The notes under the pieces are model-generated. The model was not told the origin of the DNA. It made no database searches and worked only from the letters and a program-made list of their open reading frames with translations. Positions 1,392-49,376 of a DNA stretch of 61,374 nt are shown here, in pieces. Position 1 is the first letter of the stretch. The number at the start of each line of letters is the position of its first letter. The DNA is taken from the NCBI GenBank assembly GCA_013203315.1, contig JABMQJ010000015.1:1-61374 (forward strand), written 5' to 3'. Origin of the DNA: Candidatus Omnitrophota bacterium. GTDB lineage: Bacteria; Omnitrophota; Gorgyraeia; JABMRN01; RBG-13-46-9. Position numbers and translations under genes: made by a program.

Positions 1392-4124
1392 ATGACTAAT
1401 CCTGCCGCAAATACAGTAACACAGATGAAAAAACCATTTCTATCGGTACTTTTTGATTTACTTCATAATATCATTGTGAAGGCCGCGGCCATACCGGGTG
1501 GACTAAAGGATCCAAAAGTAATATACAGATTTCGAGGACTTATAGCTACCTTTATTATTCTGATAGGTTTTTTCGTACTTTATAATAGGTTGCTCATAGA
1601 TAACACTCTTGAGAATCTCAAGTTTTCCCTCGAACAAACCGCACTGGCACAGGATATAGAAGGTGTTAACGGCCTTGATATGGTTATAAACCAGGCTACG
1701 GCAAAGGAAATTTCCCCCATATCGATGAACGCCTTTGACATAGGCAATCTGGAATATGCAACCAGCATAGTGAACACAGGTACGTCTTCCAACCAGCTTG
1801 AATACATGAAAAAAACTCTATCAACCTTGATAGGGCAAAAAGAAGAAGAGCGCGGCCCTATTCTCGCGGCACTGGACAGGATAAACCGCCCCATAAGGAG
1901 GGGAATGGTTTATCTGCTCCATCTGCCTAATTATATCTTTCGACCGCTTTTAGCGCACGCCCAGGTAGGCGAGGGCACGATGTCTATTACGCTCATGGAC
2001 AGAGTAAGGGCCATAGAAAGAGCTGGGGACCTGGAGAAGGCCGTCTTAGAATACGAAAGGTTGATCATCGTATTCACCGAAACCGATAAAGCATCCTTAC
2101 TTAAATTAAGGCTGGCTTATACATACCAGCGTCTAGGTGAATACGACAAAGCCGTTAAATTGTATAAGCAAATCCTGTGGAGATATTATCCTGATAGACA
2201 AGCAAAGATAGCCCGGATTTTTGTGGATATGCTGAAACAAAAAAACAAATTACTGAAGGAAACGGATCTCTTAATCCTGCGCTATGTTGAAACTCCCAGG
2301 GATAATATTGAAATGAGGCAGGATATCTTTTATCAAATAGGCACAATCTACATGAGGTTATTTAATCTGGTAGAGGCCAAGAAGTTTTTTAATAGAGCCA
2401 TTAAGCTTGATCCTTCAACCGACATCGCCCAAAAAGCGCAGTTTAACCTGGCATGGGCGCTGAAACAGGAATATAAGCTGGCAGAGAGCCTGGAAGGGTT
2501 TTCCATGATAATGGAACAAAAACCTGATAGCAAATTGGCCCTCGATAGCCGTTACCAGACAGCCAGTGTCTTGCATTACCAGGGTAAATATAAAGAGGCG
2601 ATAGCCGTCGAGGAAGATATTGCCGAAAAAAGCAAAGATTACAAGCTTGCCTCACTTGTCCTTTACCAGATATTCGGTTCATTTATGTATGACCTGGATG
2701 ATGACGAAGCAGCAAATAAAATATCCGAAAGACTTGAAAAAGAATATCCTACGAACCTTTACACCGGACACGTCAAGATTTCGAAGGAATACTTACTCCC
2801 AACCGCACTAGTATATTTCGCCATCAGCATTTTCTTGCCGCTAGTAGGGCTCATCAGTACTATATTTGCTATTGGCGCACCGATCATATTCGATTTTTTG
2901 GGAGGCCGACTCTATCTGGGCAATCTTATTTTTGCCGTGAGTTTCGCGGCCTTTCTGATAAATAACACTGTAAGAAATAAATTGTTCAGGCTTTTTGGGC
3001 GAGATGTTTTTGTGGCATTTTTACCTTTTATATTAGTACTTATCGCTTCGGGGTTATATAACCTGAGGGGGTCCTTTACGGAGACAGGTCTTGCTAGGCT
3101 AGCCAGCTTCACGCTGCGTTGGATGGAAATGCCGGTTGCTTTTATTTTTGTCAGCAATGTAGTAAGGAGCAAGAGATCTGTCAGGGCGGTTGCCTATTTC
3201 TCTTTCGCGGCGGCTATCGCACTAAGCTTATATGCTTTAAGGGCGTATTTATATATGCCTTTTGAGCAATTATTCGATAAAATGCCGGCAATCACTGCTT
3301 TTTTCAAATCCGGCCTGATAGACGAAACCGGCAGGTTGGGCAAAGAGATAGGATTGGGGCCCAATATTGTCGGTATTCAGCTGGCTATGGCCTTTCCAAT
3401 CGCAATAGCGCTCATTTTTATGACACCCAGCAAGCTTAAAAAAATAATACTCGCTTTTTTAACCGGTATCACGCTTTTCGTGTTGACATTAACGTTTTCA
3501 AAGAATGCGATATTTTCCCTTTTTGTAGGAATGGCGACCTGGGCGACAGTCTTGAAAAGAAGAAAGAAAATCTCTGTTTATCTATTGATTAAAAAAAGAA
3601 TAAAAATTTTTATTCTATTACTTATTACCATTGTCATAGTGATTGCCATCTTTCGCTGGTGGGCTTCTTCGGAACAGTTTAGGCTTGAGCGCCTAAACCC
3701 GAAATTCATAATGACTGAAGTAATAGACAGAATAGCGATCATGCATCAGGCGATAATGACTAGCCTGAGAAATCCCCTGACAGGGGTCGGCCCCGGCAAT
3801 TTCGGCGTTCCCCAGATATGGGATCAATCCCGTCCGGCCGTTATGCTTGAGGCGCATAATCTACTTATTCAAATACTTGTTGAAACAGGGATTTTTGGTG
3901 TCCTGGCGTATCTATATTTTTTGAAAGTTATAATATTAAAAGTGAAAAACAATTTAAAGCCACTGAAACAGCTTGGCTCACCATACATTCTTGCCTCGGC
4001 TCTTGCCGTAAGCTTTCTTGTATTTCTGACGGATCAGATAGTCGACATAAATATATGGCACGGCATAGGAATCCAGGCCGGTATAAACATAGGCTTGCTC
4101 AATGCCATGGCTAACATCGAGTAA
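1392..4124 (+). CDS. membrane-anchored TPR protein fused to an O-antigen ligase/O-oligosaccharyltransferase-like (Wzy_C) domain
   Basis: N-terminal TM helix, TPR repeats (LAYTYQRLGEYDKAVKLY; IGTIYMRLFNLVEAKKFFNRAIKLDP), then many TM helices with NPLTGVGPGNF and AHNLLIQILVETGIFG motifs. Confidence 0.8.
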   Translation: MTNPAANTVTQMKKPFLSVLFDLLHNIIVKAAAIPGGLKDPKVIYRFRGLIATFIILIGFFVLYNRLLIDNTLENLKFSLEQTALAQDIEGVNGLDMVINQATAKEISPISMNAFDIGNLEYATSIVNTGTSSNQLEYMKKTLSTLIGQKEEERGPILAALDRINRPIRRGMVYLLHLPNYIFRPLLAHAQVGEGTMSITLMDRVRAIERAGDLEKAVLEYERLIIVFTETDKASLLKLRLAYTYQRLGEYDKAVKLYKQILWRYYPDRQAKIARIFVDMLKQKNKLLKETDLLILRYVETPRDNIEMRQDIFYQIGTIYMRLFNLVEAKKFFNRAIKLDPSTDIAQKAQFNLAWALKQEYKLAESLEGFSMIMEQKPDSKLALDSRYQTASVLHYQGKYKEAIAVEEDIAEKSKDYKLASLVLYQIFGSFMYDLDDDEAANKISERLEKEYPTNLYTGHVKISKEYLLPTALVYFAISIFLPLVGLISTIFAIGAPIIFDFLGGRLYLGNLIFAVSFAAFLINNTVRNKLFRLFGRDVFVAFLPFILVLIASGLYNLRGSFTETGLARLASFTLRWMEMPVAFIFVSNVVRSKRSVRAVAYFSFAAAIALSLYALRAYLYMPFEQLFDKMPAITAFFKSGLIDETGRLGKEIGLGPNIVGIQLAMAFPIAIALIFMTPSKLKKIILAFLTGITLFVLTLTFSKNAIFSLFVGMATWATVLKRRKKISVYLLIKKRIKIFILLLITIVIVIAIFRWWASSEQFRLERLNPKFIMTEVIDRIAIMHQAIMTSLRNPLTGVGPGNFGVPQIWDQSRPAVMLEAHNLLIQILVETGIFGVLAYLYFLKVIILKVKNNLKPLKQLGSPYILASALAVSFLVFLTDQIVDINIWHGIGIQAGINIGLLNAMANIE

Positions 4125-4180
4125 TTGGATTGAACTTAAGAAAACCATCTCTAGGTTCTGCTATTGGTAATAAGTGCTGC

Positions 4181-5194
4181 ATGAATAACGTTAATCCCTT
4201 GGTATCGATTATTATAGCTTGCTTTAACGGGGAGCCTTATTTGGGCGATGCGGTAGAAAGCTGCCTCGGGCAAACCTATTTAAATATTGAAATTATTATT
4301 GTTGATGACGGCTCAGCTGATCGGAGCGTAGAAATTGCCGAAAAATACGCGTCTTCCGATTCACGAGTAAAGATTTTTCCTGCATTACACAAGGGGTATC
4401 TAGGAGCGATAAATTTCGGGCTTGATATCACAAAAGGTGAGTATGTTAAATTTCTGGATCAGGATGATTTGTTGTCGCCTTGTTCGATTGAATACCAGGT
4501 CCGGAGCCTGATCTTTTTTAAGGCCGAAATGGCTATCGCCAGGGTATTTTTATTCGAAAGTGCCAAGCTTGCGGATGCCCGTAAGAAAATGCCGTCAAAA
4601 ACCCCATTTTCAGCATCGGATAACATTGCCGAAAACATCTTGGACTTCCTGAAGAGATTAACAGGCTCGTTTAGTGGAAGCTTATTTTCGAAAGCGGCCC
4701 TTCAAAAAGCAGGGAAGTTTAACCCGGCGCTAAAAAGCGCTGATGAAGTACATGTATGGCTGAAAATTGCCATAGCCTTTCCCGGAACCAGGGTAGTATA
4801 CTGTAAGTTACCCATGCTCATATTAAAGCGTGTAGGGGATCACTCGGCCGCTAGCAAGTTTATGGATATCAGGTGGCTCTTGCTATCTCTAGAGGGCGCA
4901 GCGAGGGACTACTTAGAGAAGAGCCCACCCCAAAGCGCGAAACTTAAAAAATACATTTTTGACAGGTTGTACATCATTATGGCATATTCTTATCGCGACG
5001 GACTTAAAAATGCAGTTTTTACGGCTCTCGGTGTCTGGAAAAAAGCCGGCTTAAGGCCCCCTATTATAGAGCCGTGGTACCATAACGCGCTTCACCGCGC
5101 GCTTGGCTTTACTTTTGCCGAGGGATTTCTATCAAAAGCCCGGCAACTTCGTTCTCAACTTTTAAGGTCGAAACAACCAAGATCGTATTTATGA
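4181..5194 (+). CDS. glycosyltransferase family 2
   Basis: VSIIIACFN, IVDDGSAD and FLDQDD motifs. Start moved to ATG 4181 from the track's TTG 4130. Confidence 0.9.
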   Translation: MNNVNPLVSIIIACFNGEPYLGDAVESCLGQTYLNIEIIIVDDGSADRSVEIAEKYASSDSRVKIFPALHKGYLGAINFGLDITKGEYVKFLDQDDLLSPCSIEYQVRSLIFFKAEMAIARVFLFESAKLADARKKMPSKTPFSASDNIAENILDFLKRLTGSFSGSLFSKAALQKAGKFNPALKSADEVHVWLKIAIAFPGTRVVYCKLPMLILKRVGDHSAASKFMDIRWLLLSLEGAARDYLEKSPPQSAKLKKYIFDRLYIIMAYSYRDGLKNAVFTALGVWKKAGLRPPIIEPWYHNALHRALGFTFAEGFLSKARQLRSQLLRSKQPRSYL

Positions 5195-6000
5195 ACGCAA
5201 TTCGAAATTTCATACGCCACATTTTAAGCTTGATACCCTCTTCTTTAAAAGAGAAGTATTTATATAAAAAAGCCCGGGAGATAAAACAGAACCTAGTTAT
5301 TGAATGCTTATCGTTCCGCAAAAAACCGGCCGAATACGCGGGAATAAAGATTTATATCGACCGCCTCTTGCCTAGAAATATGAGGCGGATACTTTACACA
5401 GGTTATTATGAGTTAAGCGAGCTAGCCATTCTCGAGGCCTATCTTGGACCTGACGATGTTGTTATGGAAATAGGAGCAGGTATCGGCTTTCTTTCCAGTT
5501 ATTGCGCCAAACAGATCGGCTCGGATAAGGTTTTCGCCTATGAAGGAAACAGTTTTTTAAAAAGTTATATTCTAAAAACCTACAAGCTTAATGGGGTTAG
5601 CCCTAGATCTGAGCATTGCCTGGTCGGTGAGGAGGATGGGGAGATGGAATTCTTCATAATGAGAGATTTCCGGTTGTCGTCAACTATCGAGCATTCTCCT
5701 GAAAGATGCATAAGAAAAATCAAGGTCCCTATGAAGTCTTTTAACCGAGAAGTCGCCAAGAATAAGCCCACTTTTCTAATTCTTGATGTTGAAGGTGGGG
5801 AGTATGACCTCATCAAAAGTGCGAATTTCGGAAGCATCAAAAAAATACTAATAGAAACACATCCTCACATAATCGGTCGTGAAAAAGCCGATTATGTGAA
5901 AAAAAGGTTTAGAGAATGCGGTTTCAGGAAAAAGGATTGCATGGGAGGGGTATATTTTTTCACCAAAGAAAAAAGTAAAAACCTAACCGGGCCCTCTTGA
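5191..6000 (+). CDS. FkbM-family SAM methyltransferase
   Basis: VMEIGAGIG SAM-binding motif, AYEGN, LILDVEGGE. Confidence 0.85.
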   Translation: MNAIRNFIRHILSLIPSSLKEKYLYKKAREIKQNLVIECLSFRKKPAEYAGIKIYIDRLLPRNMRRILYTGYYELSELAILEAYLGPDDVVMEIGAGIGFLSSYCAKQIGSDKVFAYEGNSFLKSYILKTYKLNGVSPRSEHCLVGEEDGEMEFFIMRDFRLSSTIEHSPERCIRKIKVPMKSFNREVAKNKPTFLILDVEGGEYDLIKSANFGSIKKILIETHPHIIGREKADYVKKRFRECGFRKKDCMGGVYFFTKEKSKNLTGPS

Positions 6001-6016
6001 GAGTTAAAAACTACCG

Positions 6017-6086
6017 TGCTATAATATACATATCTATTACACACTTGTTACACTTTCTTGACCAAGTGGTTGCCATTTTTTAGTAT
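6017..6086 (+). promoter_or_regulatory. sigma70-like promoter(s) upstream of the PilZ gene
   Basis: TGcTATAAT at 6017-6025, and TTGACC(6058)-17 bp-TAGTAT(6081). Confidence 0.45.
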
Positions 6087-6126
6087 AATAGATGTAGTAA
6101 GTGTTGCGTCAATTCAAGGGGTTTAT

Positions 6127-6753
6127 ATGAATAAAAAAATAAAGACAAAACTTTTTTTATGCACCGCGGTATTGCTATCAATAACAGGTTTAGTAACCGC
6201 GCTATATGTATTATCCGTCGAGGAGGCGGAAAGCTTTTTTGCTTTCAAAATCAGCTTTGTCTATACGCTTCTTATCCTGGCAGCCCTATTTTTGTTTATT
6301 GCATCGGTTTCCAAGAAACTTTTTCTTTTAATTTCTAATATCTTACATAAGCACGGGGGCATGGAAAAGCTTCTTTTGGATTTAAGGGACGGCACGAAAA
6401 CTTTTTATAAGGAAAAACGTAAATATCATCGCATAAAAACAAAAGGCCAAGTGTTAACAAGAATAATTCAAAAGGAAAAAGATAAGCTAATAGAGGTCCT
6501 TGACTTGAGCTACGGAGGAGCACTTTTAGGAGCTCGGCAGACGAGTTTTCAGAATGGCGAGACAGTGGATTTAAGCATGCACTTGCCGCTATTTCCTCAG
6601 CCCATTGACGTTAAGGGAAGGGTTGTTAGGATCGAACGCGCTTCCGGGAGAGACCCCAAAACAAGCGACGCAAAAAATGTGGGAATAGAATATTTAGATA
6701 TGCCCCGTTCCGACAGAGAAAAGCTAATCGAGACAATAAACACGCTATCGTAA
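6127..6753 (+). CDS. two-TM membrane protein with C-terminal PilZ domain (c-di-GMP receptor)
   Basis: EKRKYHR (RxxxR) and DLSYGG (DxSxxG) motifs; two hydrophobic N-terminal helices. ATG 6127 has an AAGGGG RBS. Confidence 0.85.
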   Translation: MNKKIKTKLFLCTAVLLSITGLVTALYVLSVEEAESFFAFKISFVYTLLILAALFLFIASVSKKLFLLISNILHKHGGMEKLLLDLRDGTKTFYKEKRKYHRIKTKGQVLTRIIQKEKDKLIEVLDLSYGGALLGARQTSFQNGETVDLSMHLPLFPQPIDVKGRVVRIERASGRDPKTSDAKNVGIEYLDMPRSDREKLIETINTLS

Positions 6754-6794
6754 ACCCCGCCGCTAAACAAGCCTTTAAACTACGTGAAAACCAC

Positions 6795-6824
6795 TTGCAT
6801 TTGCCCGGATAAATGGTATAGTAT
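6795..6824 (+). promoter_or_regulatory. sigma70-like promoter
   Basis: TTGCAT(6795)-16 bp-TATAGT(6817) with a preceding TG. Confidence 0.5.
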
Positions 6825-6833
6825 GCTTAATAT

Positions 6834-8177
6834 ATGGTAGGAACTACGCTTCAAACGCGCCTTATTATCTTAATGGTGGTGTCGTCGATATTCCTTATAA
6901 GCGCCTTTACCGCCATTCAGTTAAATAATCAATTACAAAGAGCAGCTGAGCTCAATCTATACCGCGCAAAGCTCGGATCCCTTATCACAAAAGATAAAAT
7001 TCAGAACCTATTTCAAGGTACCGGCGCGGTGCAGGCACCCCTTGCTATCCAGTCGGGGACTGAAGAAATTTTTTCCTCACTTCTTGAATCAAACATAATC
7101 GAGAAAGCCACCCTTTTGGATAGAAATGGCTCGCCATTAACCTCTGTAGGCAATCCGGAATCCGCCCTCGCCAACGACAAAACAATTTTAGAAAGAATTA
7201 CCCAGGTAAAAGATAAAGCCAGATGGCTTTTTCCTTTTGTTGACAAAAAGAAAAAGCGAATTACGCTTTTTATAAATGTTGACAATCCTTACGGCTATGT
7301 AGTTAAACTCGTTTTTTCTCTCGGCAATCTCCAGGATGCCTTAAATGAGGTTTATGTGCCTGTAATGTTTACGATAACCATAGTCGTAATCGGCAACGTC
7401 ATACTTGCCATGCTGCTTTCCAAGGCGCTGATTTCCCCCGTTAAGCTTCTTAACCAGGCAACCAAGGACATAGCCGCCGGCGATTTAGACAAGAAGATAT
7501 CAATCGAGACAAAAGACGAACTGGAAGAGCTTGCGGGGACCTTTAACTATATGACGGTAGAACTGAAAAAGATGAAAGCAAAAGCCGAAAACGCCAACCC
7601 CCTTACTAAGCTACCCGGTAATATCGTGATTCAGGAACATGTGGAAGAAAGAATAAAGAATAATGATAAATTCGTTCTCATATACTGTGACCTGGATAAT
7701 TTTAAGGCCTTTAACGATAAGTACGGCGTGCACGCCGGAGACGATGCCATCATGCTTACGGCTACAATTTTTAAAGAAGCGATGGAAAAGAAAGGGAAGC
7801 CCGGGGATTTTATAGGGCATGAGGGCGGAGACGATTTCCTGCTCCTGACCGTGCCGGAGCGGTCCGAACCAATAGGGGGCTACGTAGCAGAAGAATTTGA
7901 CAAGCGCGTAAAGAAACTTTATTCAAAGGAAGATTTAGACCGCGGTTATATCGAGGGCAAGTCGAGAGAAACGGGTGAAGCGGTAAAATTTCCCATAATG
8001 ACAATCTCTTTAGCCGGGGTAACCAATCTCGAGAAAAAGATAGATTCTTATTCTCAGCTTACAAATATTGCCGCTGAACTGAAGAAAATAGCGAAGAAAG
8101 CCAAAACCGGACATAGTAAGCTATTGATTGACAGAAGGGTTATAGATTTAGGCGCAGAAGGCAGGCAGCAAAAATAA
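6834..8177 (+). CDS. membrane diguanylate cyclase (TM-periplasmic-TM-HAMP-GGDEF)
   Basis: HAMP (PVKLLNQATKDIAAGDL...DELEELAGTFNYM), NPLTKLPGN, DLDNFKAFNDKYG, active-site GHEGGDDF. Confidence 0.9.
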   Translation: MVGTTLQTRLIILMVVSSIFLISAFTAIQLNNQLQRAAELNLYRAKLGSLITKDKIQNLFQGTGAVQAPLAIQSGTEEIFSSLLESNIIEKATLLDRNGSPLTSVGNPESALANDKTILERITQVKDKARWLFPFVDKKKKRITLFINVDNPYGYVVKLVFSLGNLQDALNEVYVPVMFTITIVVIGNVILAMLLSKALISPVKLLNQATKDIAAGDLDKKISIETKDELEELAGTFNYMTVELKKMKAKAENANPLTKLPGNIVIQEHVEERIKNNDKFVLIYCDLDNFKAFNDKYGVHAGDDAIMLTATIFKEAMEKKGKPGDFIGHEGGDDFLLLTVPERSEPIGGYVAEEFDKRVKKLYSKEDLDRGYIEGKSRETGEAVKFPIMTISLAGVTNLEKKIDSYSQLTNIAAELKKIAKKAKTGHSKLLIDRRVIDLGAEGRQQK

Positions 8178-8233
8178 GGTTGCCACTCGAGTAGTATTTA
8201 AACAATCTAGCTTGCCGGTATAAAAGGAGAATC

Positions 8234-10951
8234 ATGATGGCGCGATCAAAATTTTTAGATATACTATCCAGATTCCGCAAACTTGTTGCCACGTTTGTCG
8301 TTTTAATAGGCTTTTTTTCGTATTATAACATATTTCTTATAGACGCTACTCTCGAGAACCTGAAGTTTTCTCTTGAGCAAACCGCTATGGCCTACGACAT
8401 AGAAGATACAAACGGTATCGACATGATCTTAAGCCAGGCTACGGCAGAAGAAGTCGCGCCGGCCAAGATGAACGCATTTGACATAGGAAACCTTGAATTC
8501 GCAAAAGGTTTAATAGATACCGGGACGAACTTTAATCAACTTGATTATTTGAAAGTTGCTTTATCTACCGTAATAAAATCAAAAGAAAAAGAGCGCGGCA
8601 TTATTCTCACAATGTTGGGCAGAATAAACAGGCCTATCAGAAAAGGCGTGATTTACCTTGCTTATCTACCTCGACAATTCTTCCGCCCGCGCCTTGCGCA
8701 AGCCCAGACAGGGGAGGCAGCCATACTTAAGCTCTCAGGGAAATTAAGGGCCATAGAAAAGGAAGAAAACCTCAGTGACGCAGCCGTGAAGTATGCCGAA
8801 CTAGTCAAAGAATACGCCGAAACCGACAAAATATCTTTGATTAAGCTAAGATTGGCATACACTTACCACCGCCTGGGCGAGTACGACAAGGCCCTGGAAC
8901 TCTATCGCGAAATCGCAAAGACATACTATCCCAACCAAGACGCAAAAATTGCCCAAATTTTCATATCAGGTCTAAAGCACAAAGACACCTTGCTTAACGA
9001 CGCTAATCTATTAATTATAAAATCCGCCGCGATTCCGGACGACAATATTGACGCAAAACAGGATACATATTACCAAATAGGATTGGTTTATACCAAACTC
9101 TTTAATCTGGAGGAAGCCAGGAGATTTTTCCGGAGGACCATTAGACTTAATCCTGTAAGTGACATGGCCGCAAAAGCACAGTTTAACCTGGCCTGGATCC
9201 TTAAGCAGGAAAATAAGCTGACCGAAAGCATTGAGGAATTCTCGAAGATAGCCAAGGAAAAGCCCACCAGCGAATTAGTCCTCAACACCAGCGTCCAGTT
9301 GGCCGATGTTTTACATTCCGAGGGTAAATATGAAGAAGCGGCAAAGCTTCAGCTAAAAATGGCTGAAGAATATAAGGATAGCGAAGAAGTAGCTGCTCTC
9401 GCACTTTTCCAGGCAGGTGCGACATACATGTATGACCTGAATGATACAAAGAAAGCAAAAGAAATCTTTAGTAAACTTACAAAGCTGTACCCGAAGAGCA
9501 CATACGGCCAATATTTAGCGCCGGAAAAAAGCGCCATAGGAATGTTTCTTACCTACGTGCTCCCCAGGACCACAAGAGTACTGGCCTGGAGGGTAGCAGG
9601 GCTTTACGCGCTTAGCGGTCTTTCCGGCGAGCTCGTTAAGGCAGAAACAGTATTCGAAGAGCCCGGCATGAACCTCTCCGTAAACGACTGGTGTGCGGAA
9701 GAATTTCCGGATTCAATCGGCGATATATTTTTCGACGTAAGAGGCATAGATATAAAATTGGAAAAAGGTAATATTACCATTTCAGGTAAGATTACTTTCG
9801 GCAAATATGCGGTAAAGGCTGAGGTAGAGGGGCATCTGGAAGTTACCAAAGACGGCGGAGCAAAAGTAGTAATCACAAAAGCCTATCTCAATAAAATACC
9901 CATATTACCGATGCTCATCAATAACACCTTAACAAAAACAATATTACTCATCAATAATTTCTTCCCGCTTGTTTTCACAAACATTTCCATTGAAGACGGA
10001 AAAATGGCTATTGAAGCGTACGGATCCAAAAGAATAATAGAAGAAATAAAATCGTCTACAAAAAATCGATTAGCAGGGGAAACTACAATCGAAGAAATAA
10101 AAGATCCGAAAGAGCAGGCAAGGATTTACGGATTATTTAAGGAAAAATTTCCCGCGAGCGACTTTTCACCTAAGCCTACATATAGCCAGGAAGAACTATT
10201 CCAGGATTTTTTCACAAGAATGTATTTATATGCCGGATTTAAACTCATGGAAACTGTTAAAGATTCAAAACTCGATTACGCAAGATCGATACGTACTTTA
10301 GGGCGGCTCATGCTCGTAGAAAGCAAGTTCAGGGTTAATTATACCCAGGATCACATAAACGCAGATATAGCGAGATTCGTATCAAACGAATTTCCCAGGG
10401 TAATGAATGAAAGATTTTTGTTTGATGTTATTGGACTTAAGCTTCATTTTAAGGATAGCGGGGAAATAGGTTTTCAAAGCCACATTGGCCTTGGCTATAA
10501 CGAGACATTCCCCATGGAGCCCAAGCGCGTTTATGTCGAAGGGACAATGGTTTTAGAGATAGATCTGGAGAGCAAACTTCCGAGATTAGTATTTAAAGAA
10601 GTTAGTTTAGACAATAAACCTTATGACGTAGAAAAACTTAACCTTGTTACTTTGGATGGCTTTAATTTGCTAAAAGACGCGCACATACCGTTTAAACTGG
10701 ACGAAATCAAAGTTTACGAAGGTGGCATTGTGCTGCAAGGAAAGGCGCCGAGGGATTATACCGAAAGGCTCTTCAGCGATCCTTACCTATTTGTTATTTT
10801 CCACGTCAGGGACTGGGATTTAGGCATGGCCGGTATTGAGCGTCTCAGATCACCACTTGCCACAGAATACGAGGACTATCGTGGCACGTCATGGGAAAAA
10901 GGAGGCTATGGGCACGGACAGATATATCAATCGGAATACACTTTAAAATAA
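8234..10951 (+). CDS. membrane-anchored TPR protein with two tandem beta-rich C-terminal domains (possibly LmeA/DUF2993-like)
   Basis: N-terminal ~430 aa clearly paralogous to 1392..4124. Internal repeat EEFPDSIGDIFFDVRGIDIKL / NEFPRVMNERFLFDVIGLKLHF. Confidence 0.75.
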   Translation: MMARSKFLDILSRFRKLVATFVVLIGFFSYYNIFLIDATLENLKFSLEQTAMAYDIEDTNGIDMILSQATAEEVAPAKMNAFDIGNLEFAKGLIDTGTNFNQLDYLKVALSTVIKSKEKERGIILTMLGRINRPIRKGVIYLAYLPRQFFRPRLAQAQTGEAAILKLSGKLRAIEKEENLSDAAVKYAELVKEYAETDKISLIKLRLAYTYHRLGEYDKALELYREIAKTYYPNQDAKIAQIFISGLKHKDTLLNDANLLIIKSAAIPDDNIDAKQDTYYQIGLVYTKLFNLEEARRFFRRTIRLNPVSDMAAKAQFNLAWILKQENKLTESIEEFSKIAKEKPTSELVLNTSVQLADVLHSEGKYEEAAKLQLKMAEEYKDSEEVAALALFQAGATYMYDLNDTKKAKEIFSKLTKLYPKSTYGQYLAPEKSAIGMFLTYVLPRTTRVLAWRVAGLYALSGLSGELVKAETVFEEPGMNLSVNDWCAEEFPDSIGDIFFDVRGIDIKLEKGNITISGKITFGKYAVKAEVEGHLEVTKDGGAKVVITKAYLNKIPILPMLINNTLTKTILLINNFFPLVFTNISIEDGKMAIEAYGSKRIIEEIKSSTKNRLAGETTIEEIKDPKEQARIYGLFKEKFPASDFSPKPTYSQEELFQDFFTRMYLYAGFKLMETVKDSKLDYARSIRTLGRLMLVESKFRVNYTQDHINADIARFVSNEFPRVMNERFLFDVIGLKLHFKDSGEIGFQSHIGLGYNETFPMEPKRVYVEGTMVLEIDLESKLPRLVFKEVSLDNKPYDVEKLNLVTLDGFNLLKDAHIPFKLDEIKVYEGGIVLQGKAPRDYTERLFSDPYLFVIFHVRDWDLGMAGIERLRSPLATEYEDYRGTSWEKGGYGHGQIYQSEYTLK

Positions 10952-10990: not shown

Positions 10991-11377
10991 ATGAAGAAAA
11001 CATGTTGCTTAATAATTATTTTTACGCTTTTACTGTTATTAAACTCTTTTTCTTTTGCTGCAGGTAAATCTTCCAGCGATCTTTTGAAAGAAGGGCTCCT
11101 GGGGGCCGGTTCAGGCGCAGTTGGTGGCCTTGCTTCCGGGGCCAAGGGCGGAGATGTCTGGAAGGGCGCATTAGCCGGGGCAGGCGTGAATATTGTAGGC
11201 GGAGCGCTTCTTGATTCTATCAGCGGAGAGAAAGTAGATACGGTTAACAACGTAGAGTCGATGGATCCCCAGAAAGCGTATGGTAACGGGTATAAAGAGG
11301 GTTTTCATAATGGCTATAAACAAGGTTATACCCAGGGCTATAAAGAGGGCATAAAAGAAGGTATGAGTAGCCGGTAA
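10991..11377 (+). CDS. secreted glycine-zipper protein with GYxxG repeat tail
   Basis: Signal peptide (…SFSFAA), GLLGAGSGAVGG…GALAGAGVNIVGG, tail YGNGYKEGFHNGYKQGYTQGYKEG; strong G-rich RBS. Confidence 0.75.
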   Translation: MKKTCCLIIIFTLLLLLNSFSFAAGKSSSDLLKEGLLGAGSGAVGGLASGAKGGDVWKGALAGAGVNIVGGALLDSISGEKVDTVNNVESMDPQKAYGNGYKEGFHNGYKQGYTQGYKEGIKEGMSSR

Positions 11378-11460: not shown

Positions 11461-12447
11461 ATGTTATTATTATTTATTTTTATAATAAGCGTACTTCTTA
11501 TTTCAGGCGTATGCTCCATGACGGAAGCTGCAATATTAAGCTTATCGCGTACAAGGGCTCGGATTCTTTGCGAAAAGAAACAAAAAGGAAGCCACGACGT
11601 TCTTTATATTAAAGAAAATATCCATTCTGCGGTGGCGACCATTGTTATTCTCAATAATGCCGTTAATATAATCGGCGCCATATTCGTCGGGCAGATAGCG
11701 TCAAAAATATTTGGCAATGAATTTTTGGGAATATTTTCAGCCGTTCTGACTTTCGGAATTATAGTCATCTCCGAGGTTATCCCAAAAACAATAGGCGAAC
11801 ATTATAAGATACCTGTTTCATTGGCAAGCGCGAAATTCTTGCGGGTTTTAATGTGGTTATTCCAGCCTTTTGTGAAAGCCATCGGGATGCTAATGCGGCC
11901 ATTCGGTAAGATGGATAAAAGGCCGTGGGTAACAGAAGAAGAGATAAAGGTGCTTCTTCGCCTCGGAAGGGACTTCGGCACGGTTGAGGTCGACGAAGAA
12001 AGGCTTATAAACAGAGTTTTTAAACTAAACGACGTAAGGGCAAGCCAAATGATGAAAAATATGGATGGTATTTACGCCTTAGACGGTCAGAGGACTCTTC
12101 TCGAAGAAAAAGAACGCATAATAAATTCTCCGTATAACAGAATAGTTATCTACCAAAAAGAACCATCCTATATTGTAGGCATTTGTCAGCAGAGAGTACT
12201 TTTGAGGGAAATCGCAAACGATAATTACAATGTACAGATAAAAAACTTTATGACAGAGCCAATATTTGTAAGCGGTGATGAAAAAGCCGATGTGCTCCTC
12301 GAAAAATTTCAATCCTACCACCAGCACCTCTTTATCGTCCGCGAACAAAAGGCCAAAAACATCGGCATCATTACAATGGAAGACGTCCTGGAGGAGCTCT
12401 TCGGCGAAATCTACGATGAGAAAGACATCTCCTCGCGCGCGAAGTAG
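11461..12447 (+). CDS. CNNM/DUF21-CBS domain protein (HlyC/CorC-like)
   Basis: SGVCSMTEAAILSL, SEVIPKTIG, tandem CBS domains, GIITMEDVLEELFGEIYDE. Confidence 0.9.
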   Translation: MLLLFIFIISVLLISGVCSMTEAAILSLSRTRARILCEKKQKGSHDVLYIKENIHSAVATIVILNNAVNIIGAIFVGQIASKIFGNEFLGIFSAVLTFGIIVISEVIPKTIGEHYKIPVSLASAKFLRVLMWLFQPFVKAIGMLMRPFGKMDKRPWVTEEEIKVLLRLGRDFGTVEVDEERLINRVFKLNDVRASQMMKNMDGIYALDGQRTLLEEKERIINSPYNRIVIYQKEPSYIVGICQQRVLLREIANDNYNVQIKNFMTEPIFVSGDEKADVLLEKFQSYHQHLFIVREQKAKNIGIITMEDVLEELFGEIYDEKDISSRAK

Positions 12448-12590: not shown

Positions 12591-14429
12591 ATGGCTAAAT
12601 TCGAAATAAAAAATACACACCTGTACATGAAAAGTGCTACATTAATGCGCTTTTTCCGCATAATGAGAGTAACTCCCGCTTACTTTATTGTAACGGTATT
12701 TTCATCGTTTATCGTAGCATTTTTTGACGGCCTCTCCATAGGGCTTTTGGTGCCACTAGCCAAGGGGATCGTTGACGGCAATTTCAGTTTTTTACTAAAA
12801 ATACCTATTTTTAAAACTATTATAGCCTACTCTCCGCAGCTATTCGACAAAGCGCCGGCTAAATTTCTATTTATACTGCTAGTGGGAACGATTTTTATAG
12901 CGGCGCTAACCAAAAACGTTTTCAAATACCTGGCCAATTTATATAATACCTATCAGCAAGGGACATACAGCCTTAATTTAAAGAAATTCATATTTGACAG
13001 ATACCTTGGCTTCGGAAAGCTCTTTTTTGACAGGACAAGCCAGGGGTATATCACCACAACATTGGGATTCTCCGGAAGCGTTGTGGGTCTTCTCAATATT
13101 TTTATACATGCGCTTGACACGTTTTTTACCTTTGTTATCTACATAACCATACTGCTTATAATTTCGTGGAAATTAACGATTTTCTCGCTAATTATTTTTC
13201 CGATTTTACACTACAGCTTAAAGTGGATTATTAAGAAGATCGAAATGACAGCAGGGTTGCAGACTAAGGCAGCGCTTAAATTAGGCCGGGAAGTATTCAA
13301 TGTCCTATCTTGTATTCCCCTGGTAAAGGCCTATAACAAGGAGGAGGAAGCGAAAAGAAAATATCGCGACATAAATGAGCTCATGAGAAAATTGGATTTT
13401 AGCATGGCCAAGAAAACTGCATTAGTAGGACCGATTCAGGAAATTATCATGCTGATAGCCCTTGTATTAGCTATTTCGGCGGCAGCTTTTATGCTTATAA
13501 GAGGCAAATTAGACGAAATAGCGGGATTTTTGGTATTCTTTTATCTTCTCAGAAAAATCATTCCCATCTTCATGTCTTTCAATGGAATCAAAATTTCTTT
13601 AAGTCAGACAAAGCCGGTAATAAAAGAAGTATTGGATATATTCAATGACAAAGATAAATTTTGTGTACCCGAGGGAAGCAGGGTATTTCGTGGTTTAGAA
13701 AGAAAGATTGAGTTTAACCATTTAAGTTTTTTGTATAAAAAAAATATACCCGTATTGAAAGACCTGGGTTTCACTATTGAAAAAGGAAAGATGACAGCAA
13801 TTGTAGGCCCTACCGGCGCAGGCAAGACAACAATTATAAGCCTTATTATGCGCTTTTATGACTGCGTGCCCTCGACTATTTTAATGGATGACGTTGATAT
13901 AAGAGAATTTACCTCAAAGTCTCTAAGGCACTATATGGCCCTGGTGAGCCAGGAGGCCCTGCTTTTTAATAATACCCTAAGGTATAATATAGGTTTTGGA
14001 ATCGAAGAAAAAATTAACGAGGAAAGGCTCATTGACATTGCGAAGAAAGCAAGGCTATACGATTTTATTATGAAATTACCCGAAGGCTTTGATACAGAAG
14101 TGGGGGACAGGGGTATCAGGCTCTCAGGAGGTGAAAAGCAAAGGGTTTCAATTGCAAGAGCGCTCCTTAAGGAAGCAGCGATATTGATCCTGGATGAAGC
14201 CACAAGCTCCCTTGATACACACACAGAGCGCCTTATCCACGAGGCAATCGAGGAAGCGGTAAAGGATAGAACCACAATCGTGATCGCCCACAGGCTTTCC
14301 ACAATAAAAAAGGCCGATAAAATTATAGTCGTCGAAAAAGGCAGATTCATCGAAGGAGGTACCTTAGACGAGCTCCTTCTCCAGAAAGGCAAGTTTTACG
14401 AATACTGGGAAGAGCAAAAGTTTTATTGA
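12591..14429 (+). CDS. MsbA/PglK-like ABC half-transporter (probable lipid-linked glycan flippase)
   Basis: N-terminal TM domain, Walker A GPTGAGKT, LSGGEKQR, ILILDEATSSLD, IAHRLST; first gene of the GT operon. Confidence 0.9.
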   Translation: MAKFEIKNTHLYMKSATLMRFFRIMRVTPAYFIVTVFSSFIVAFFDGLSIGLLVPLAKGIVDGNFSFLLKIPIFKTIIAYSPQLFDKAPAKFLFILLVGTIFIAALTKNVFKYLANLYNTYQQGTYSLNLKKFIFDRYLGFGKLFFDRTSQGYITTTLGFSGSVVGLLNIFIHALDTFFTFVIYITILLIISWKLTIFSLIIFPILHYSLKWIIKKIEMTAGLQTKAALKLGREVFNVLSCIPLVKAYNKEEEAKRKYRDINELMRKLDFSMAKKTALVGPIQEIIMLIALVLAISAAAFMLIRGKLDEIAGFLVFFYLLRKIIPIFMSFNGIKISLSQTKPVIKEVLDIFNDKDKFCVPEGSRVFRGLERKIEFNHLSFLYKKNIPVLKDLGFTIEKGKMTAIVGPTGAGKTTIISLIMRFYDCVPSTILMDDVDIREFTSKSLRHYMALVSQEALLFNNTLRYNIGFGIEEKINEERLIDIAKKARLYDFIMKLPEGFDTEVGDRGIRLSGGEKQRVSIARALLKEAAILILDEATSSLDTHTERLIHEAIEEAVKDRTTIVIAHRLSTIKKADKIIVVEKGRFIEGGTLDELLLQKGKFYEYWEEQKFY

Positions 14430-15429: not shown

Positions 15430-16488
15430 ATGAATAAAAAAAATCTTTTTATAGAACCTTCCATAGGAGGCTTTCTATTTAGTATAGATACTGCATTAGA
15501 GGGATTGCGTCGGCCAGGGTACGTGATACCCGATGAGCGGTTTCTCGAATTTTCGCCAATAGAAACCGACTGTTATCACCCAATTACCAACCCGCTGGAT
15601 AGGGCTCTCTACAACTTAGCCTCAGAAATTAAACCGGGAACCGTACTCGCAATGGACTTGGACGATACCTTGCTTACTAACTCATACACTTGCGGTAACG
15701 AATGGCAAAAAGAAGGTTCTGGCAGTGATTCCAAATATTTCGAATCAATACGGTATAGCCAAATGAGGCGTTCTCTTTCCGGGTATTTAAAATATGCGCA
15801 GAACTCACCCAAACGCGCTCAATATGATTCTCGGAAATATACATTTCTCAAAAACCCGCAAGTTATTTCCCAACTCCGGCCTGGCATACTTCAAGCGCTA
15901 AAAGGATTTAAGAATGCGGGCGCTATATTAGTTCTTGTTTCCGCGACAGCAAGAAAGAGAATGGATTTTTTATTAACAAGGTTCCCCATCTTAAAAAGGC
16001 TATTTTCTTTTGATAACAAATTATGCGTTATCGCGGCAGAAGATATTTTAAAAGCATCTTACGAACTTCTACAAAACAAAGACAAGCTTCGCCTTGCCAC
16101 AGAAGAGGACAGGCTTTCTTTAAGCGCGCATATTGATCGGCCCATGTCTTTGGCCGCAAAAACACCGTATCTCATAAAGAGAATATTGGGCATAAGTAAT
16201 TATGATATTCTCATCGATGATTCTAGTGTAACATTTGAATTGTTTAAAGCCCATAACCTGAGCCACAAGATCCTCAAGGTAAACCCGCGTTTACCCCATA
16301 CAGATTATGCTTTGGATATCGTAACCAGCGTCCTTCGCAGGCTGCAGAATAAAAAAGACGCCGCAGACGAAGTAAAGCGGAGCAAAAAAAATAACAATAT
16401 TTTCGATGCAAGCAATTACCGCTACATTCGTTTCGAGGACCCCCTGTATTATCCGCTGATTCATATGCGAGATCAAGTAGAGGCGTAA
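15430..16488 (+). CDS. HAD-superfamily (NIF/FCP1-like) phosphatase
   Basis: MDLDDTL (DxDxT), LRPG, LVSAT, AKTP and ILIDDS motifs. Confidence 0.65.
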   Translation: MNKKNLFIEPSIGGFLFSIDTALEGLRRPGYVIPDERFLEFSPIETDCYHPITNPLDRALYNLASEIKPGTVLAMDLDDTLLTNSYTCGNEWQKEGSGSDSKYFESIRYSQMRRSLSGYLKYAQNSPKRAQYDSRKYTFLKNPQVISQLRPGILQALKGFKNAGAILVLVSATARKRMDFLLTRFPILKRLFSFDNKLCVIAAEDILKASYELLQNKDKLRLATEEDRLSLSAHIDRPMSLAAKTPYLIKRILGISNYDILIDDSSVTFELFKAHNLSHKILKVNPRLPHTDYALDIVTSVLRRLQNKKDAADEVKRSKKNNNIFDASNYRYIRFEDPLYYPLIHMRDQVEA

Positions 16489-31110: not shown

Positions 31111-32520
31111 ATGGTAAAAAAAGGAAAGAATATTGTTATTGCAGAGTTCTTTATAATCGGGCTAATGGCAATTTTAGTCTATAACCTTTTTTCTCAAGGG
31201 GTAAGCTGGAAAATCGTGCAATCTGCCGCTGCCCTTATTTTTTTAGGAATTCTTCTTTCCCTTGTGTTCGAAGCAAGGCAAAGGAGAATGTGTATCGTTA
31301 ATGCTAAAACCATGATTCTTACAGGCGTCCTGGCGTGGATACTTCTAGATCCGCTGACATTGAAGGAGGGAATTGAGAAGTTTTCCCCCGAGAGTATTTC
31401 AAAAGCATTTGTGATGATCCTTCTTTTTATGCTCATGGTTTACCTCGGGTATATTATAGAGTGGCCAGCCTATTTTGAAAAAATCTTCAAAAAACTTGAT
31501 TATAAATACTCCTTTAGTCGCGGGAAATTGTTTAAATTTACAGCAATATTCCTTTTTTTGGGGCTCCTTCCTATCCTTATCTGGGGCGGTGGTGCGAAAA
31601 ATATTATCTATAACCTTACTCATGCGGGCCGTTTCGGAACAGCGTGGGGGAGAGGGGCTTACGGTGGGTGGACAGATTGGATTAAAACAGGGCTTAGCCT
31701 TTTTGGAATAATAGGTATTCAGCTCACCTGGTTTTATAGTATTTTTGTAAAAAAGAAAATTACTCTGATTCTGCTTGCCCTGGTAAACATATTAATAATC
31801 TTCAATACGGGCACAAGGACAAGCCTTGGCGCTGTGCTGCTGCCGCTCTTTCTGCTTTATTACCTGCATGCTTATAACAACAGAAGGAAATCGCGGTATG
31901 TTATTTTTATATTGTTTTATTTGCTGCTCATTGTTTTTCAGATTCAGCTAATTGTAAGAAGCTCTTCACATGGAACGCGTGTCGAAGATATTGTCCGCGA
32001 ATCTATTTCGAAAGTTAGCGGAAAAGCTCCAACGGAATTTCAAAGAGATAACCAGTTTTATGAGATTGTCCGAATCGGCGAATATGTTCCAAGCACATTG
32101 CCCTATTCAGGCGAACTTTTAATATTTAGGCCCTTATATCATTTCGTACCGCGGGCGATATGGAAGGGGAAGCCGGGCGGCATCACTAAAAACTACGAAA
32201 ACTTAGTTCTTGGTGAAGGAATGAGCTTAACACTTGCGGTTTCTATGATCGGTGAATTTTATATCTGTAACGGGTGGCTCGGCATATGCGCAATAGGTAT
32301 TTTAATAGGATTTCTGGCGAAACAGTTTGATTCACTGATTGAAATGTCGAGACGCTCACCCGCTATCTTGCTGGTGTACAGCTACGGGCTAACCTTCTTA
32401 TTTATCAGTATAAGGTCGTATCAGATCGTGTATGAAGGTTGGTATGCGTTTATATTCATATATTTCATGCTCAAATGGATAAGGGTAAAAAAACCCACAA
32501 CTCAATATGAACATACTTAA
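31111..32520 (+). CDS. Wzy-like O-antigen/polysaccharide polymerase
   Basis: About 11-12 TM helices, TGTR, PLYHFVPRAIWKGKP and GEFY…GWLG motifs; located inside the GT cluster. Confidence 0.75.
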   Translation: MVKKGKNIVIAEFFIIGLMAILVYNLFSQGVSWKIVQSAAALIFLGILLSLVFEARQRRMCIVNAKTMILTGVLAWILLDPLTLKEGIEKFSPESISKAFVMILLFMLMVYLGYIIEWPAYFEKIFKKLDYKYSFSRGKLFKFTAIFLFLGLLPILIWGGGAKNIIYNLTHAGRFGTAWGRGAYGGWTDWIKTGLSLFGIIGIQLTWFYSIFVKKKITLILLALVNILIIFNTGTRTSLGAVLLPLFLLYYLHAYNNRRKSRYVIFILFYLLLIVFQIQLIVRSSSHGTRVEDIVRESISKVSGKAPTEFQRDNQFYEIVRIGEYVPSTLPYSGELLIFRPLYHFVPRAIWKGKPGGITKNYENLVLGEGMSLTLAVSMIGEFYICNGWLGICAIGILIGFLAKQFDSLIEMSRRSPAILLVYSYGLTFLFISIRSYQIVYEGWYAFIFIYFMLKWIRVKKPTTQYEHT

Positions 32521-44608: not shown

Positions 44609-44610
44609 AA

Positions 44611-46372: not shown

Positions 46373-46375
46373 AAG

Positions 46376-49372: not shown

Positions 49373-49376
49373 GTAC

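Follow-up and report, generated by a model that had tools for sequence, protein, structure and literature searches.

Gene content of the locus

The window, i.e. the whole stretch of Candidatus Omnitrophota DNA that was analysed (61,374 nucleotides), contains two ORFs on the same strand whose products begin with related N-terminal modules and which lie 4 kb apart within one large glycoconjugate cluster. The first, P0001 (1392..4124, 910 aa), is a fusion of the module with a WaaL-like (Wzy_C) protein, as judged from its ORF and Pfam matches. The second, P0002 (8234..10951, 905 aa), carries the module ahead of what its structural model suggests to be a tandem of TULIP-like units. All features described here are on the + strand. 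The database gene call for P0001 (P0003, 899 aa) begins at M12, nt 1425.

Between the two ORFs lie genes for a GT2 glycosyltransferase (4130..5194), an FkbM-type methyltransferase (5191..6000), a PilZ membrane protein whose N-terminus has two hydrophobic segments (6058..6753; PF07238, E 1e-12) and a HAMP-GGDEF protein (6834..8177) with GGDDF at the signature site. PilZ receptors of c-di-GMP are recognised by the motifs RxxxR and [D/N]xSxxG, and both are present in the PilZ neighbour as RKYHR and DLSYGG. P0002 is followed by a secreted glycine-zipper protein of 128 aa with C-terminal GYK(E/Q)G repeats (10991..11377), a GldE/CorC-like CNNM/CBS membrane protein scoring below family cut-offs (11461..12447) and an ABC exporter half-transporter (12591..14429). 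The latter is HepA/MsbA/PglK-like, below equivalog cut-offs, and is a candidate flippase for a lipid-linked glycan. There is also a separate oligosaccharide repeat-unit polymerase of the Wzy type (31111..32520; TIGR04370 at 49.2 bits, cut-off 40), and about 20 glycosyltransferases are encoded downstream.

P0002 belongs to a conserved unit consisting of membrane PilZ, HAMP-GGDEF, TPR-TULIP, small secreted protein and CNNM genes. A contig scan of genomes yielded two loci from 26 pattern matches. One of these (L001), which begins at the PilZ gene, has the same order, with identities of 42% for PilZ, 71% for GGDEF, 63% for the P0002-like protein (long form, see below), 84% for the small protein and 73% for CNNM. 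The other (L002) has a distant module protein within a cluster holding a Wzy_C gene fragment. The promoter-like site that scored highest in a scan (5997-6025, 11/12) lay before the PilZ gene, and 37 sites in total against 34.7 in shuffled sequence is no excess.

The shared module

By BLASTP, P0001 and P0002 share 239 of 479 positions (50%, E 5e-153) across aa 43-511 and aa 10-485 respectively, with the genuine similarity finishing at about aa 457/424, at YPTNLY/YPKSTY. The codon alignment of the module comprises 417 codons (nt 1518-2771 and 8261-9517), with 54.4% amino acid identity, 63.2% nucleotide identity and identities of 0.67/0.75/0.48 at codon positions 1/2/3, while over the 450 nt past the junction the ungapped identity drops to the chance level of 26%. 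An earlier note on this DNA had described a two-copy module of about 420 aa with a series of shared peptide motifs, every one of which is present, and a sudden stop of similarity after the two hexapeptides; both descriptions hold. Its statement that long DNA matches remain was too strong, as the run it quoted is 14 nt (CAGTTTAACCTGGC), the longest exact run in register is 15 nt and synonymous sites of the module are saturated (pS 0.71).

The module duplication is, judged from the sequences, an old one that precedes the divergence of the sampled lineages, because synonymous sites are saturated, the longest run is so short and a sister relationship of the P0001 and P0002 modules is rejected by the AU test (p 1.2e-7). 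The saturation and the AU test contradict any hint of a recent duplication, which was discarded as an explanation. Nor was there any sign of gene conversion: over aa 43-200, P0001 is 61% identical to P0002 of its own genome, and equally near, at 62% and 65%, to P0005 and P0007, two P0002-type proteins from other organisms.

The module is made up of a signal-anchor, a conserved juxtamembrane helical domain and approximately 6-7 TPR pairs. In P0001, the signal-anchor TM (aa 47-65, 1530..1586) was identified by hydropathy and flank charges, its N-flank being positively charged. It is followed by the juxtamembrane helical domain and linker (aa 66-200, 1587..1991), which is without a Pfam family, and by the TPR region (aa 201-460, 1992..2771; Pfam TPR_1/2/6/8), the sole portion of the P0001 AlphaFold2 (AF2) model that is confidently modelled (pLDDT 70-92). 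The copy in P0002 (aa 10-428, 8261..9517), delimited by BLASTP and the codon alignment, has one N-terminal TM, and its model shows some 6-7 helix pairs at aa 160-430 (pLDDT 79-89). In both proteins TPR_1/2/6/8 and other TPR families score above Pfam cut-offs. The juxtamembrane domain of P0001 has the motifs that are most conserved in the family, TLENLKFSLEQTA, NLEYA and RINRPIR. A "TM+TPR module", as it was termed in the earlier note, is thus correct for both of its named parts and too narrow as a whole, since conservation in the module peaks outside the TPR, in the juxtamembrane domain. A Protein Atlas search with aa 1-175 returned nothing usable.

Integrity of the P0001 junction

A chimeric assembly or a sequencing artefact near nt 2770 would account for the abrupt end of similarity, and nothing else speaks for it. 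P0001 is a single uninterrupted frame across the junction, and its GC3 is steady (0.469 before, 0.462 after). Two independent full-length orthologues, P0004 (891 aa, on three contigs, the longest of 79,957 bp) and P0024 (888 aa), share the module and Wzy_C layout end to end at 39-43% identity. P0001 and P0004 align over their full length (40%) with the junction continuous, and the three-way alignment including P0024 spans it also. As both orthologues keep the same layout across the junction, the misassembly that the earlier note wished to see excluded is a negligible prospect, and the search that it proposed, for the TPR and Wzy_C architecture in other genomes, has found the same layout in these two. 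No description of that architecture was met in a narrow literature search, which took in part of the text of PMC4594306 and from which absence is not claimed.

The WaaL-like half of P0001

The WaaL-like membrane core of P0001 (aa 483-910, 2838..4121) has about 12 predicted TM segments, as delineated by Pfam, hydropathy and profile comparison. Pfam Wzy_C (PF04932) matches aa 692-841 with 52.6 bits (cut-off 31.7). As a single sequence the Wzy half found no solved relative in the PDB, while a profile of four Wzy halves matched 7TPG/7TPJ only (E 4e-12), its positions 114-450 aligning to chain residues 66-402 of 413 in 7TPG (~337 positions). The O-antigen-ligase-like nature of this C-terminus, proposed in the earlier note, is supported by these two matches.

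A large, putatively periplasmic loop with the catalytic motifs (3663..3890) includes GVGPGNF (aa 798-804) and HX10G (H822-G833). GxGxGxF and HX10G occur in all three fusions, P0001, P0004 and P0024, as well as in the standalone protein P0023, with the HX10G histidine at H822, H785, H790 and H325 respectively, and the 7TPG residue aligned with that of P0001 is the His of HAHN. WaaL-like ligases bind the Und-PP phosphates by two arginines. For these a single candidate emerged, R780, which aligns to an Arg of 7TPG and is R in P0004 and K in P0024. By hydropathy and loop charge, the three fusions are compatible with 12 segments, the ninth of which is followed by a loop of 63 aa, and in the P0001 core K/R-rich loops that are predicted to be cytoplasmic lie at aa 528-537, 591-598, 678-684, 722-738 and 850-863. 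The AF2 model of P0001, built on a 5-row alignment, had an overall pLDDT of 47 and ~30 over the membrane half, so that TM number and parity are those read from hydropathy.

As described in the available text of PMC2932511 and PMC10920833, WaaL spans the membrane 12 times, TM9 and TM10 being joined by a large periplasmic loop, and an HX10G motif with an essential His at the end of this loop is part of the ligase definition (PMC2932511). Like WaaL (PF04932; 7TPG/7TPJ, Cupriavidus metallidurans), P0001 has HX10G and GxGxGxF and, as predicted from hydropathy, some 12 hydrophobic segments with the 63-aa loop between the ninth and tenth. It goes beyond WaaL in having about 465 extra N-terminal residues, which comprise the anchor, the helical domain, the TPR and an extra hydrophobic segment. 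A standalone relative of the Wzy half is represented by one weak match in a word-index search with length windows, namely P0023 (E 2.7e-4).

To our knowledge, Wzy_C proteins cannot be sorted by sequence into ligases, polymerases and protein O-oligosaccharyltransferases. Conceivably, though this is unlikely, the Wzy_C half acts as a protein O-oligosaccharyltransferase (PglL/PglS-like) or as a second polymerase, with the TPR recognising the acceptor protein or the growing chain and the module being a generic periplasmic scaffold that was reused with no pathway in common. In favour of this, TPRs are peptide binders, the one match with a solved structure bears the deposited name "polymerase/ligase", and WaaL-like folds include O-oligosaccharyltransferases according to the portions available of PMC3643930 and PMC12800693. 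Against this, the cluster has its separate Wzy-type polymerase gene, which is circumstantial, no candidate acceptor gene was identified adjoining P0001, and conservation peaks in the non-TPR juxtamembrane domain, which is common to proteins of the lipid-binding type.

The TULIP-like half of P0002

The C-terminus of P0002 has two like units in the AF2 model (pLDDT 74.7, pTM 0.50). TULIP-like unit 1 (aa 467-598, 9632..10027) is composed of a strand, a helix, 4-5 strands, a helix and 2 strands, and unit 2 (aa 697-838, 10322..10747) is homologous to it, hhalign giving a probability of 97.8% (E 9e-13), which makes them an internal tandem repeat. Top Foldseek matches of the model were BPI (1ewf) and CETP (2obd; E 1.2e-6), followed by LBP (4m4d, 2.2e-5) and P47 (5wix, 4.8e-4). 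TM-scores by target for matches of this type are low, at 0.14-0.16 (rmsd ~25 A), because the query was the whole 905-aa model. From the tandem repeat and the best matches to BPI, CETP and LBP, the P0002 C-terminus looks like a double TULIP with putative lipid-binding units. The "beta-rich repeat" of the earlier note is confirmed as a repeat and refined, by Foldseek and hhalign, to a probable tandem TULIP-like pair.

No Pfam family was found for the C-terminus, whole or either half, in P0002 or its L001 counterpart at E up to 10, and it has no sequence membership in the described TULIP families LBP_BPI_CETP, LmeA/DUF2993, DUF4403, YceB and P47. Structure rows of the Protein Atlas pointed weakly to an LmeA-like domain (aa 430-598; TM 0.29/0.53) and to LBP_BPI_CETP, with feature scores of 0.75-0.79 that are under the Atlas's own lead threshold. 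Module proteins occur in a short form, with one TULIP-like unit after the module, and a long form such as P0002, with two; the C-tails of 34 short forms match both P0002 units (98.0% and 96.1%). Standalone relatives of the C-terminus in the word-index search with length windows were just two fragments on contigs of ~1.3 kb.

[quoted passage not shown] In a BPI-like double TULIP there are two units in tandem, in each of which a curved antiparallel sheet wraps a long helix. Like BPI/LBP/CETP and the bacterial double TULIPs (P47, DUF4403, Bdellovibrio TipA), P0002 has in its model tandem homologous units of helix and curved sheet. It differs from these in its inner-membrane tether, formed by the ~420-aa anchor/TPR module, in its PilZ/GGDEF operon, and in its low TM-scores and lack of a sequence-family match to known double TULIPs. 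LmeA/DUF2993 proteins of Actinobacteria and Cyanobacteria, linked to lipoglycan biosynthesis in the parts seen of PMC7643837 and PMC6791001, resemble the predicted layout of P0002 in having an N-terminal TM anchor and then a periplasmic domain of the lipid-binding type. However, P0002 has no PF11209 match and its Atlas match to LmeA is weak, and its TULIP units are preceded by the TPR module instead of a Chorein-N-like domain. No description of a TPR and TULIP architecture was met in a narrow literature search, which covered PMC12419801 in part and does not amount to a claim of absence.

Membrane topology

The net charge of the anchor's N-flank is above that of its C-flank in 55 of 59 family proteins (means +2.7 and -0.5). 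By K+R alone the bias is weaker, N being above C in 36 of the 59, equal in 10 and below in 13. From the anchor charge bias we infer that the module is periplasmic and anchored N-in. At the P0001 junction there is an uncharged hydrophobic stretch (aa 466-505, 2787..2906) with an invariant Pro483, and such a stretch of 35-40 aa with the invariant Pro is present in all three fusions. It probably comprises an extra "return" crossing and, next to that, TM1 of the ligase core. The hydrophobic segment ending at Pro483 would bring the chain back across the membrane, and the ligase core would therefore keep its usual orientation. As a point against such a hairpin, its leading half would be only 13-18 residues long.

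If the junction stretch crossed the membrane once, nine TMs would precede the large loop and the TPR would be opposite the catalytic loop, as for a LapB-like cytoplasmic module whose TPR couples both proteins to PilZ/GGDEF-type regulators. LapB is among the TPR fold matches (9up5, Foldseek), and the flank immediately before the junction stretch is K/R-rich, which taken alone favours a cytoplasmic location. This arrangement is nonetheless quite improbable. The net-charge bias of the anchors towards a positive N-side is the opposite of that of an N-out anchor, the extra junction segment would be needless, yet all three fusions have it, and the bacterial TULIPs described in the available text of PMC6791001 are extracytoplasmic.

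Distribution of the module and origin of the fusion

The stored rows with an N-terminal module match number 77; four of these (three clusters) have the Wzy half, 18 have the full P0002-type C-terminus and the remainder are short forms, so that the module is carried by non-ligase proteins in ~70 of 77 rows. In this census the TULIP form predominates, and ligase fusions are rare. Among 169 stored proteins, only the three fusion clusters and standalone P0023 were multi-TM. In a rooted tree of 26 module sequences, short forms lie outside and the fusions fall within an 11-row clade (100/98) together with long forms. The three fusions as one clade are kept by the AU test (p 0.598). Independent origins of the three are superfluous, the single clade giving a slightly better likelihood, and part-trees with weak support place P0001 with P0024 (60) or with P0004 and P0024 together (57/48). 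Domain shuffling by which a ligase gained the module, as suggested in the earlier note, is supported, since the module is mostly found in non-ligase proteins and the fusions nest inside non-ligase forms. By sequence, a module copy is taken to have joined a WaaL-type (Wzy_C) protein long before the sampled lineages diverged.

A possible role in glycolipid assembly

The common module suggests that P0001 and P0002 act on the same cell-envelope glycolipid pathway. The module may be a docking or positioning device for a putative periplasmic partner, and since both proteins have it, both activities would be brought to the same place. The ~20 downstream glycosyltransferases would build the glycan, the MsbA/PglK-like ABC protein would flip it and the separate Wzy might polymerise it, and P0001 would move the flipped undecaprenyl-PP-linked glycan onto a lipid acceptor. 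With its BPI/LBP-like barrels, P0002 may hold the lipid-linked substrate or product, or move it, under the control of c-di-GMP. This reading in full, with a TULIP family, an old ligase fusion, periplasmic docking of ligase and lipid carrier through the same module, glycan ligation with lipid carriage, and c-di-GMP control, is given roughly even odds (about 0.5). It agrees in part with the interpretation in the earlier note, whose observation is confirmed.

The earlier note also envisaged that the two modules bind each other directly, with ligase and TULIP protein in one complex. Both are encoded in one cluster and the modules are 54% identical, and not a single position is invariant in the three fusions yet different from the residue found in at least 80% of 17 long forms, so that surfaces could be shared. 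On the other hand, the P0001 module is no nearer to P0002 than to P0005 or P0007 over aa 43-200, and thus shows no sign of partner-specific co-evolution. A complex prediction of aa 66-460 with aa 34-428 stayed below the mark of 0.32, at 0.05 and 0.00, without controls, and weighs neither way. Such a heterodimer is considered distinctly unlikely, and docking of both proteins to a common partner is preferred. An extension of the preferred reading, in which the locus would be a lineage-specific, c-di-GMP-wired periplasmic assembly line of Omnitrophota for a surface glycolipid, whose tethered double TULIP extracts the newly ligated lipid-linked glycan from the inner membrane and bypasses the classical Lpt bridge, is speculative and would be a surprise.

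Envelope building in the uncultivated, possibly host-dependent Omnitrophota is barely known. The locus offers a link of the "Rosetta-stone" kind, with a WaaL-type enzyme on one side and, on the other, a family of TPR proteins that are tethered to the membrane and bear BPI/LBP-like domains unmatched in Pfam. If this link is functional, glycan ligation would be coupled to periplasmic lipid extraction, a step under c-di-GMP control. At the minimum, a new domain family is defined, and the likely annotation of its members as plain "TPR repeat proteins", as in the source names, is corrected.

BcsC, PelB, PgaA and AlgK are periplasmic TPR scaffolds of polysaccharide secretion, where PilZ gives c-di-GMP control. 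The locus resembles these systems in having an envelope TPR in a glycan pathway, adjoining PilZ and GGDEF genes. It differs from them in lacking a porin or beta-barrel as well as a synthase-type GT2-PilZ fusion, and its TPR has an inner-membrane anchor, with a ligase or TULIP units as the fusion partner.

Two large proteins share an N-terminal module

In its first 14 kb, the window carries genes on one strand, among them two large ORFs, at 1392-4124 (+ strand; P0001, 910 aa) and 8234-10951 (+ strand; P0002, 905 aa). Residues 43-511 of P0001 align with residues 10-485 of P0002 at 50% identity (BLASTP, E-value 5e-153), meaningful similarity ending at YPTNLY in the former and YPKSTY in the latter. 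An earlier note gave the coordinates and peptide motifs of the two module copies correctly, but its "long DNA matches" is too strong a description, the longest exact run between the copies being 15 nt. Protein identity between the copies is 54.4% and DNA identity 63.2% across 417 aligned codons; in the 450 nt past the junction, identity is at chance level (26%).

The fusion of the module to a ligase-like half in P0001 is a real feature and not an artefact. Misassembly at the junction is ruled out by two further fusions, P0004 (891 aa) and P0024 (888 aa), which match P0001 end to end, anchor, junction and C-terminus included, at 39-43% identity, and by the equal GC3 on either side (0.469 before, 0.462 after). 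All source-named matches, as well as both genome-derived loci (L001, L002), belong to Candidatus Omnitrophota.

Modelled with AF2 from a 14-row alignment (pLDDT 74.7, pTM 0.50), P0002 is helical throughout up to aa 461, with an N-terminal TM anchor, a bundle of approximately five helices (aa 38-149, pLDDT 58-81) and some 6-7 TPR-like pairs (aa ~160-430, pLDDT 79-89). Conservation across the whole family peaks in the juxtamembrane stretch rather than in the TPR region (mean top-residue frequency of 0.74 and 0.64 in P0001 aa 61-100); no Pfam family matched this stretch and an Atlas search gave no usable lead.

The ligase-like half of P0001

P0001 matches Pfam Wzy_C with 52.6 bits (cut-off 31.7). 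A profile built from the three fusion halves and a weak standalone relative (P0023) matches exactly one solved protein (E-value 4e-12, ~337 positions), namely 7TPG/7TPJ, the WaaL of C. metallidurans (PMC12800693). WaaL is described as a 12-TM protein whose TM9 and TM10 are joined by a large periplasmic loop; the histidine that opens its HX10G motif is essential, and two arginines serve Und-PP (PMC2932511, PMC10920833). P0001 has H822-x10-G833 and GVGPGNF, both motifs being kept in P0004, P0024 and P0023. Its ninth hydrophobic segment is followed by a 63-aa loop, and its K/R-rich loops alternate between the two sides. Its core is of WaaL type and the catalytic motif is intact. The glycan cluster of the window also encodes a separate Wzy-type repeat-unit polymerase (31111-32520, TIGR04370 above cut-off), an MsbA/PglK-like ABC exporter, approximately 20 glycosyltransferases and two initiating transferases, which, with the WaaL features, makes a ligase-type role for P0001 plausible.

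Topology of the anchor and junction

By net charge, the N-flank of the anchor is more positive than the C-flank in 55 of 59 family proteins (mean +2.7 vs -0.5; 18 of 77 rows had first been removed as duplicates or partial matches), which indicates a probable N-in orientation of the anchor, the module lying outside the cytoplasm. Counted by K+R alone, the N-flank has more in 36 of the 59, equal numbers in 10 and fewer in 13. The ligase core itself requires its N-terminus inside, and all three fusions possess 35-40 uncharged residues in a row exactly at the junction, an invariant proline (P483) among them. It is known from the membrane-protein literature that a central proline can split such a stretch into a helical hairpin; here the stretch would make a short return crossing and then form TM1 of the ligase core. 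Two features speak against such a hairpin: its first half would span just 13-18 residues, and the flank ahead of it is K/R-rich. A cytoplasmic TPR region is considered unlikely given the charge bias at the anchor, and a periplasmic location of the module is favoured.

The C-terminus of P0002

No Pfam match was obtained for the P0002 C-terminus even at E-values up to 10, nor did a protein search restricted by word index and length windows find standalone relatives beyond two fragments on contigs of ~1.3 kb. In the AF2 model it possesses two units with the same element order (aa 467-598 and 697-838), and the profiles of the two halves match mutually (hhalign 97.8%, E-value 9e-13). The tails of 34 short forms (180-277 aa) match both units (98.0% and 96.1%), and therefore short forms have one unit and long forms, such as P0002, two. 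Foldseek against the PDB placed BPI and CETP on top (E-value 1.2e-6), with LBP and botulinum P47 next, each of the four a two-barrel TULIP protein; the other high-ranking matches among those shown are helical-repeat, mostly TPR, proteins aligned to the N-terminal half. TM-scores are low because the query was the whole 905-aa model, and the TULIP fold is therefore graded as likely, not proven. The literature describes bacterial TULIPs, some of them pseudo-dimeric, as lipid binders located outside the cytoplasm (PMC6791001; TipA preprint).

Each protein varies a known architecture: the fusion is a WaaL-like enzyme with an added N-terminal, probably periplasmic module, and P0002 a likely double TULIP with a TPR tether. 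We infer a docking role for the module and functional coupling of the ligase to a lipid carrier, a connection through the shared module being a plausible hypothesis; the heterodimer suggested in the earlier note is a less likely possibility.

Age of the duplication and origin of the fusion

Synonymous sites of the two module copies are saturated (pS 0.71, nominal dS ~2.2, at which the dN/dS ratio is unreliable) and dN is 0.34, so that the duplication is old, not recent, with both copies under constraint. Searched exhaustively against 1.84 billion representative proteins, the module gave 34 matches at E<=1e-30. When stored proteins were sorted into architectures by BLAST, the N-terminal module was present in 77 rows. 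Only four carry the Wzy half, representing three clusters (P0001 under two start codons, P0004, P0024), 18 have the full P0002-type C-terminus and the remainder are short forms of ~590-690 aa, which makes the TULIP type the usual form of the protein.

In a maximum-likelihood tree of 26 of the 77 modules (duplicates and most short forms left out), the three fusions lie within an 11-row clade (support 100/98) alongside long forms, and five of six short forms fall outside. Rooting on short forms suggests that the TULIP type is also the older form. Holding the fusions as one clade is not rejected (AU test, p 0.598; constrained tree better by 1.2 lnL units), while P0001 and P0002 as sisters are rejected (p 1.2e-7). 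The P0002 module is 80% identical to that of its orthologue P0005, but no long form exceeds 56% identity to the module of P0001. The first 160 module residues of P0001 have 61% identity to P0002 vs 36% to P0004; long forms from other organisms match them just as well (62-65%), so the pattern is put down to rate differences and not to gene conversion within this genome. An old, conserved domain-shuffling event lies behind the fusion, most simply a single one in which the ligase gained a copy of the N-terminal module of a TULIP-type protein.

Gene neighbourhood

Between the two genes lie those for a GT2, an FkbM methyltransferase, a membrane PilZ protein and a HAMP-GGDEF protein. The PilZ protein (6058-6753) has a pair of hydrophobic segments at its N-terminus, and its RxxxR and DxSxxG motifs (RKYHR, DLSYGG) look canonical; just upstream of the gene is the promoter-like site (5997-6025) that ranks best in the first 15 kb. 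The HAMP-GGDEF protein (6834-8177; L001 orthologue 71% identical) could be an atypical cyclase or a degenerate one, having GGDDF in place of GGDEF/GGEEF and a Pfam match covering profile positions 5-94 of 161. The double-TULIP gene is immediately followed by one for a 128-aa secreted protein (10991-11377), 84% identical to its L001 orthologue, an arrangement recalling the Bdellovibrio TipA/TipB gene pair. This small protein has a signal peptide and a glycine-zipper, and GYK(E/Q)G repeats at its C-terminus. Locus L001, from another Omnitrophota genome and on a contig that starts at the PilZ gene, has the same order (PilZ, GGDEF, long form, 128-aa glycine-zipper protein, CNNM; 42-84% identity), and this neighbourhood of c-di-GMP type is conserved. 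In L002 (163-771, 4794-6191), from another Omnitrophota MAG, a distant module-family member is clustered, unfused, with a Wzy_C gene fragment, GT4, epimerase, Bac_transf and methyltransferase genes.

Elsewhere, a 1189-aa protein (18638-22207) has a GT1 domain (aa 1008-1152) as its sole Pfam match, leaving ~1000 N-terminal residues without an assignment. ORFs 385-1221, 15430-16488 and 16490-17371, in or beside the glycan cluster, matched no Pfam family, one having a weak HAD-IIIC hint (NCBIfam). There are two carbamoyltransferase genes (36006-37739, 47555-49790), the second followed and overlapped by a gene for an SxtJ-like protein. The remainder is ordinary chromosome, with purine genes, enolase, SHMT, NrdR and the Rnf complex, the latter as a complete-looking operon (RnfC, D, G, E, A and B-like; 42342-47179) followed by a thioredoxin gene.
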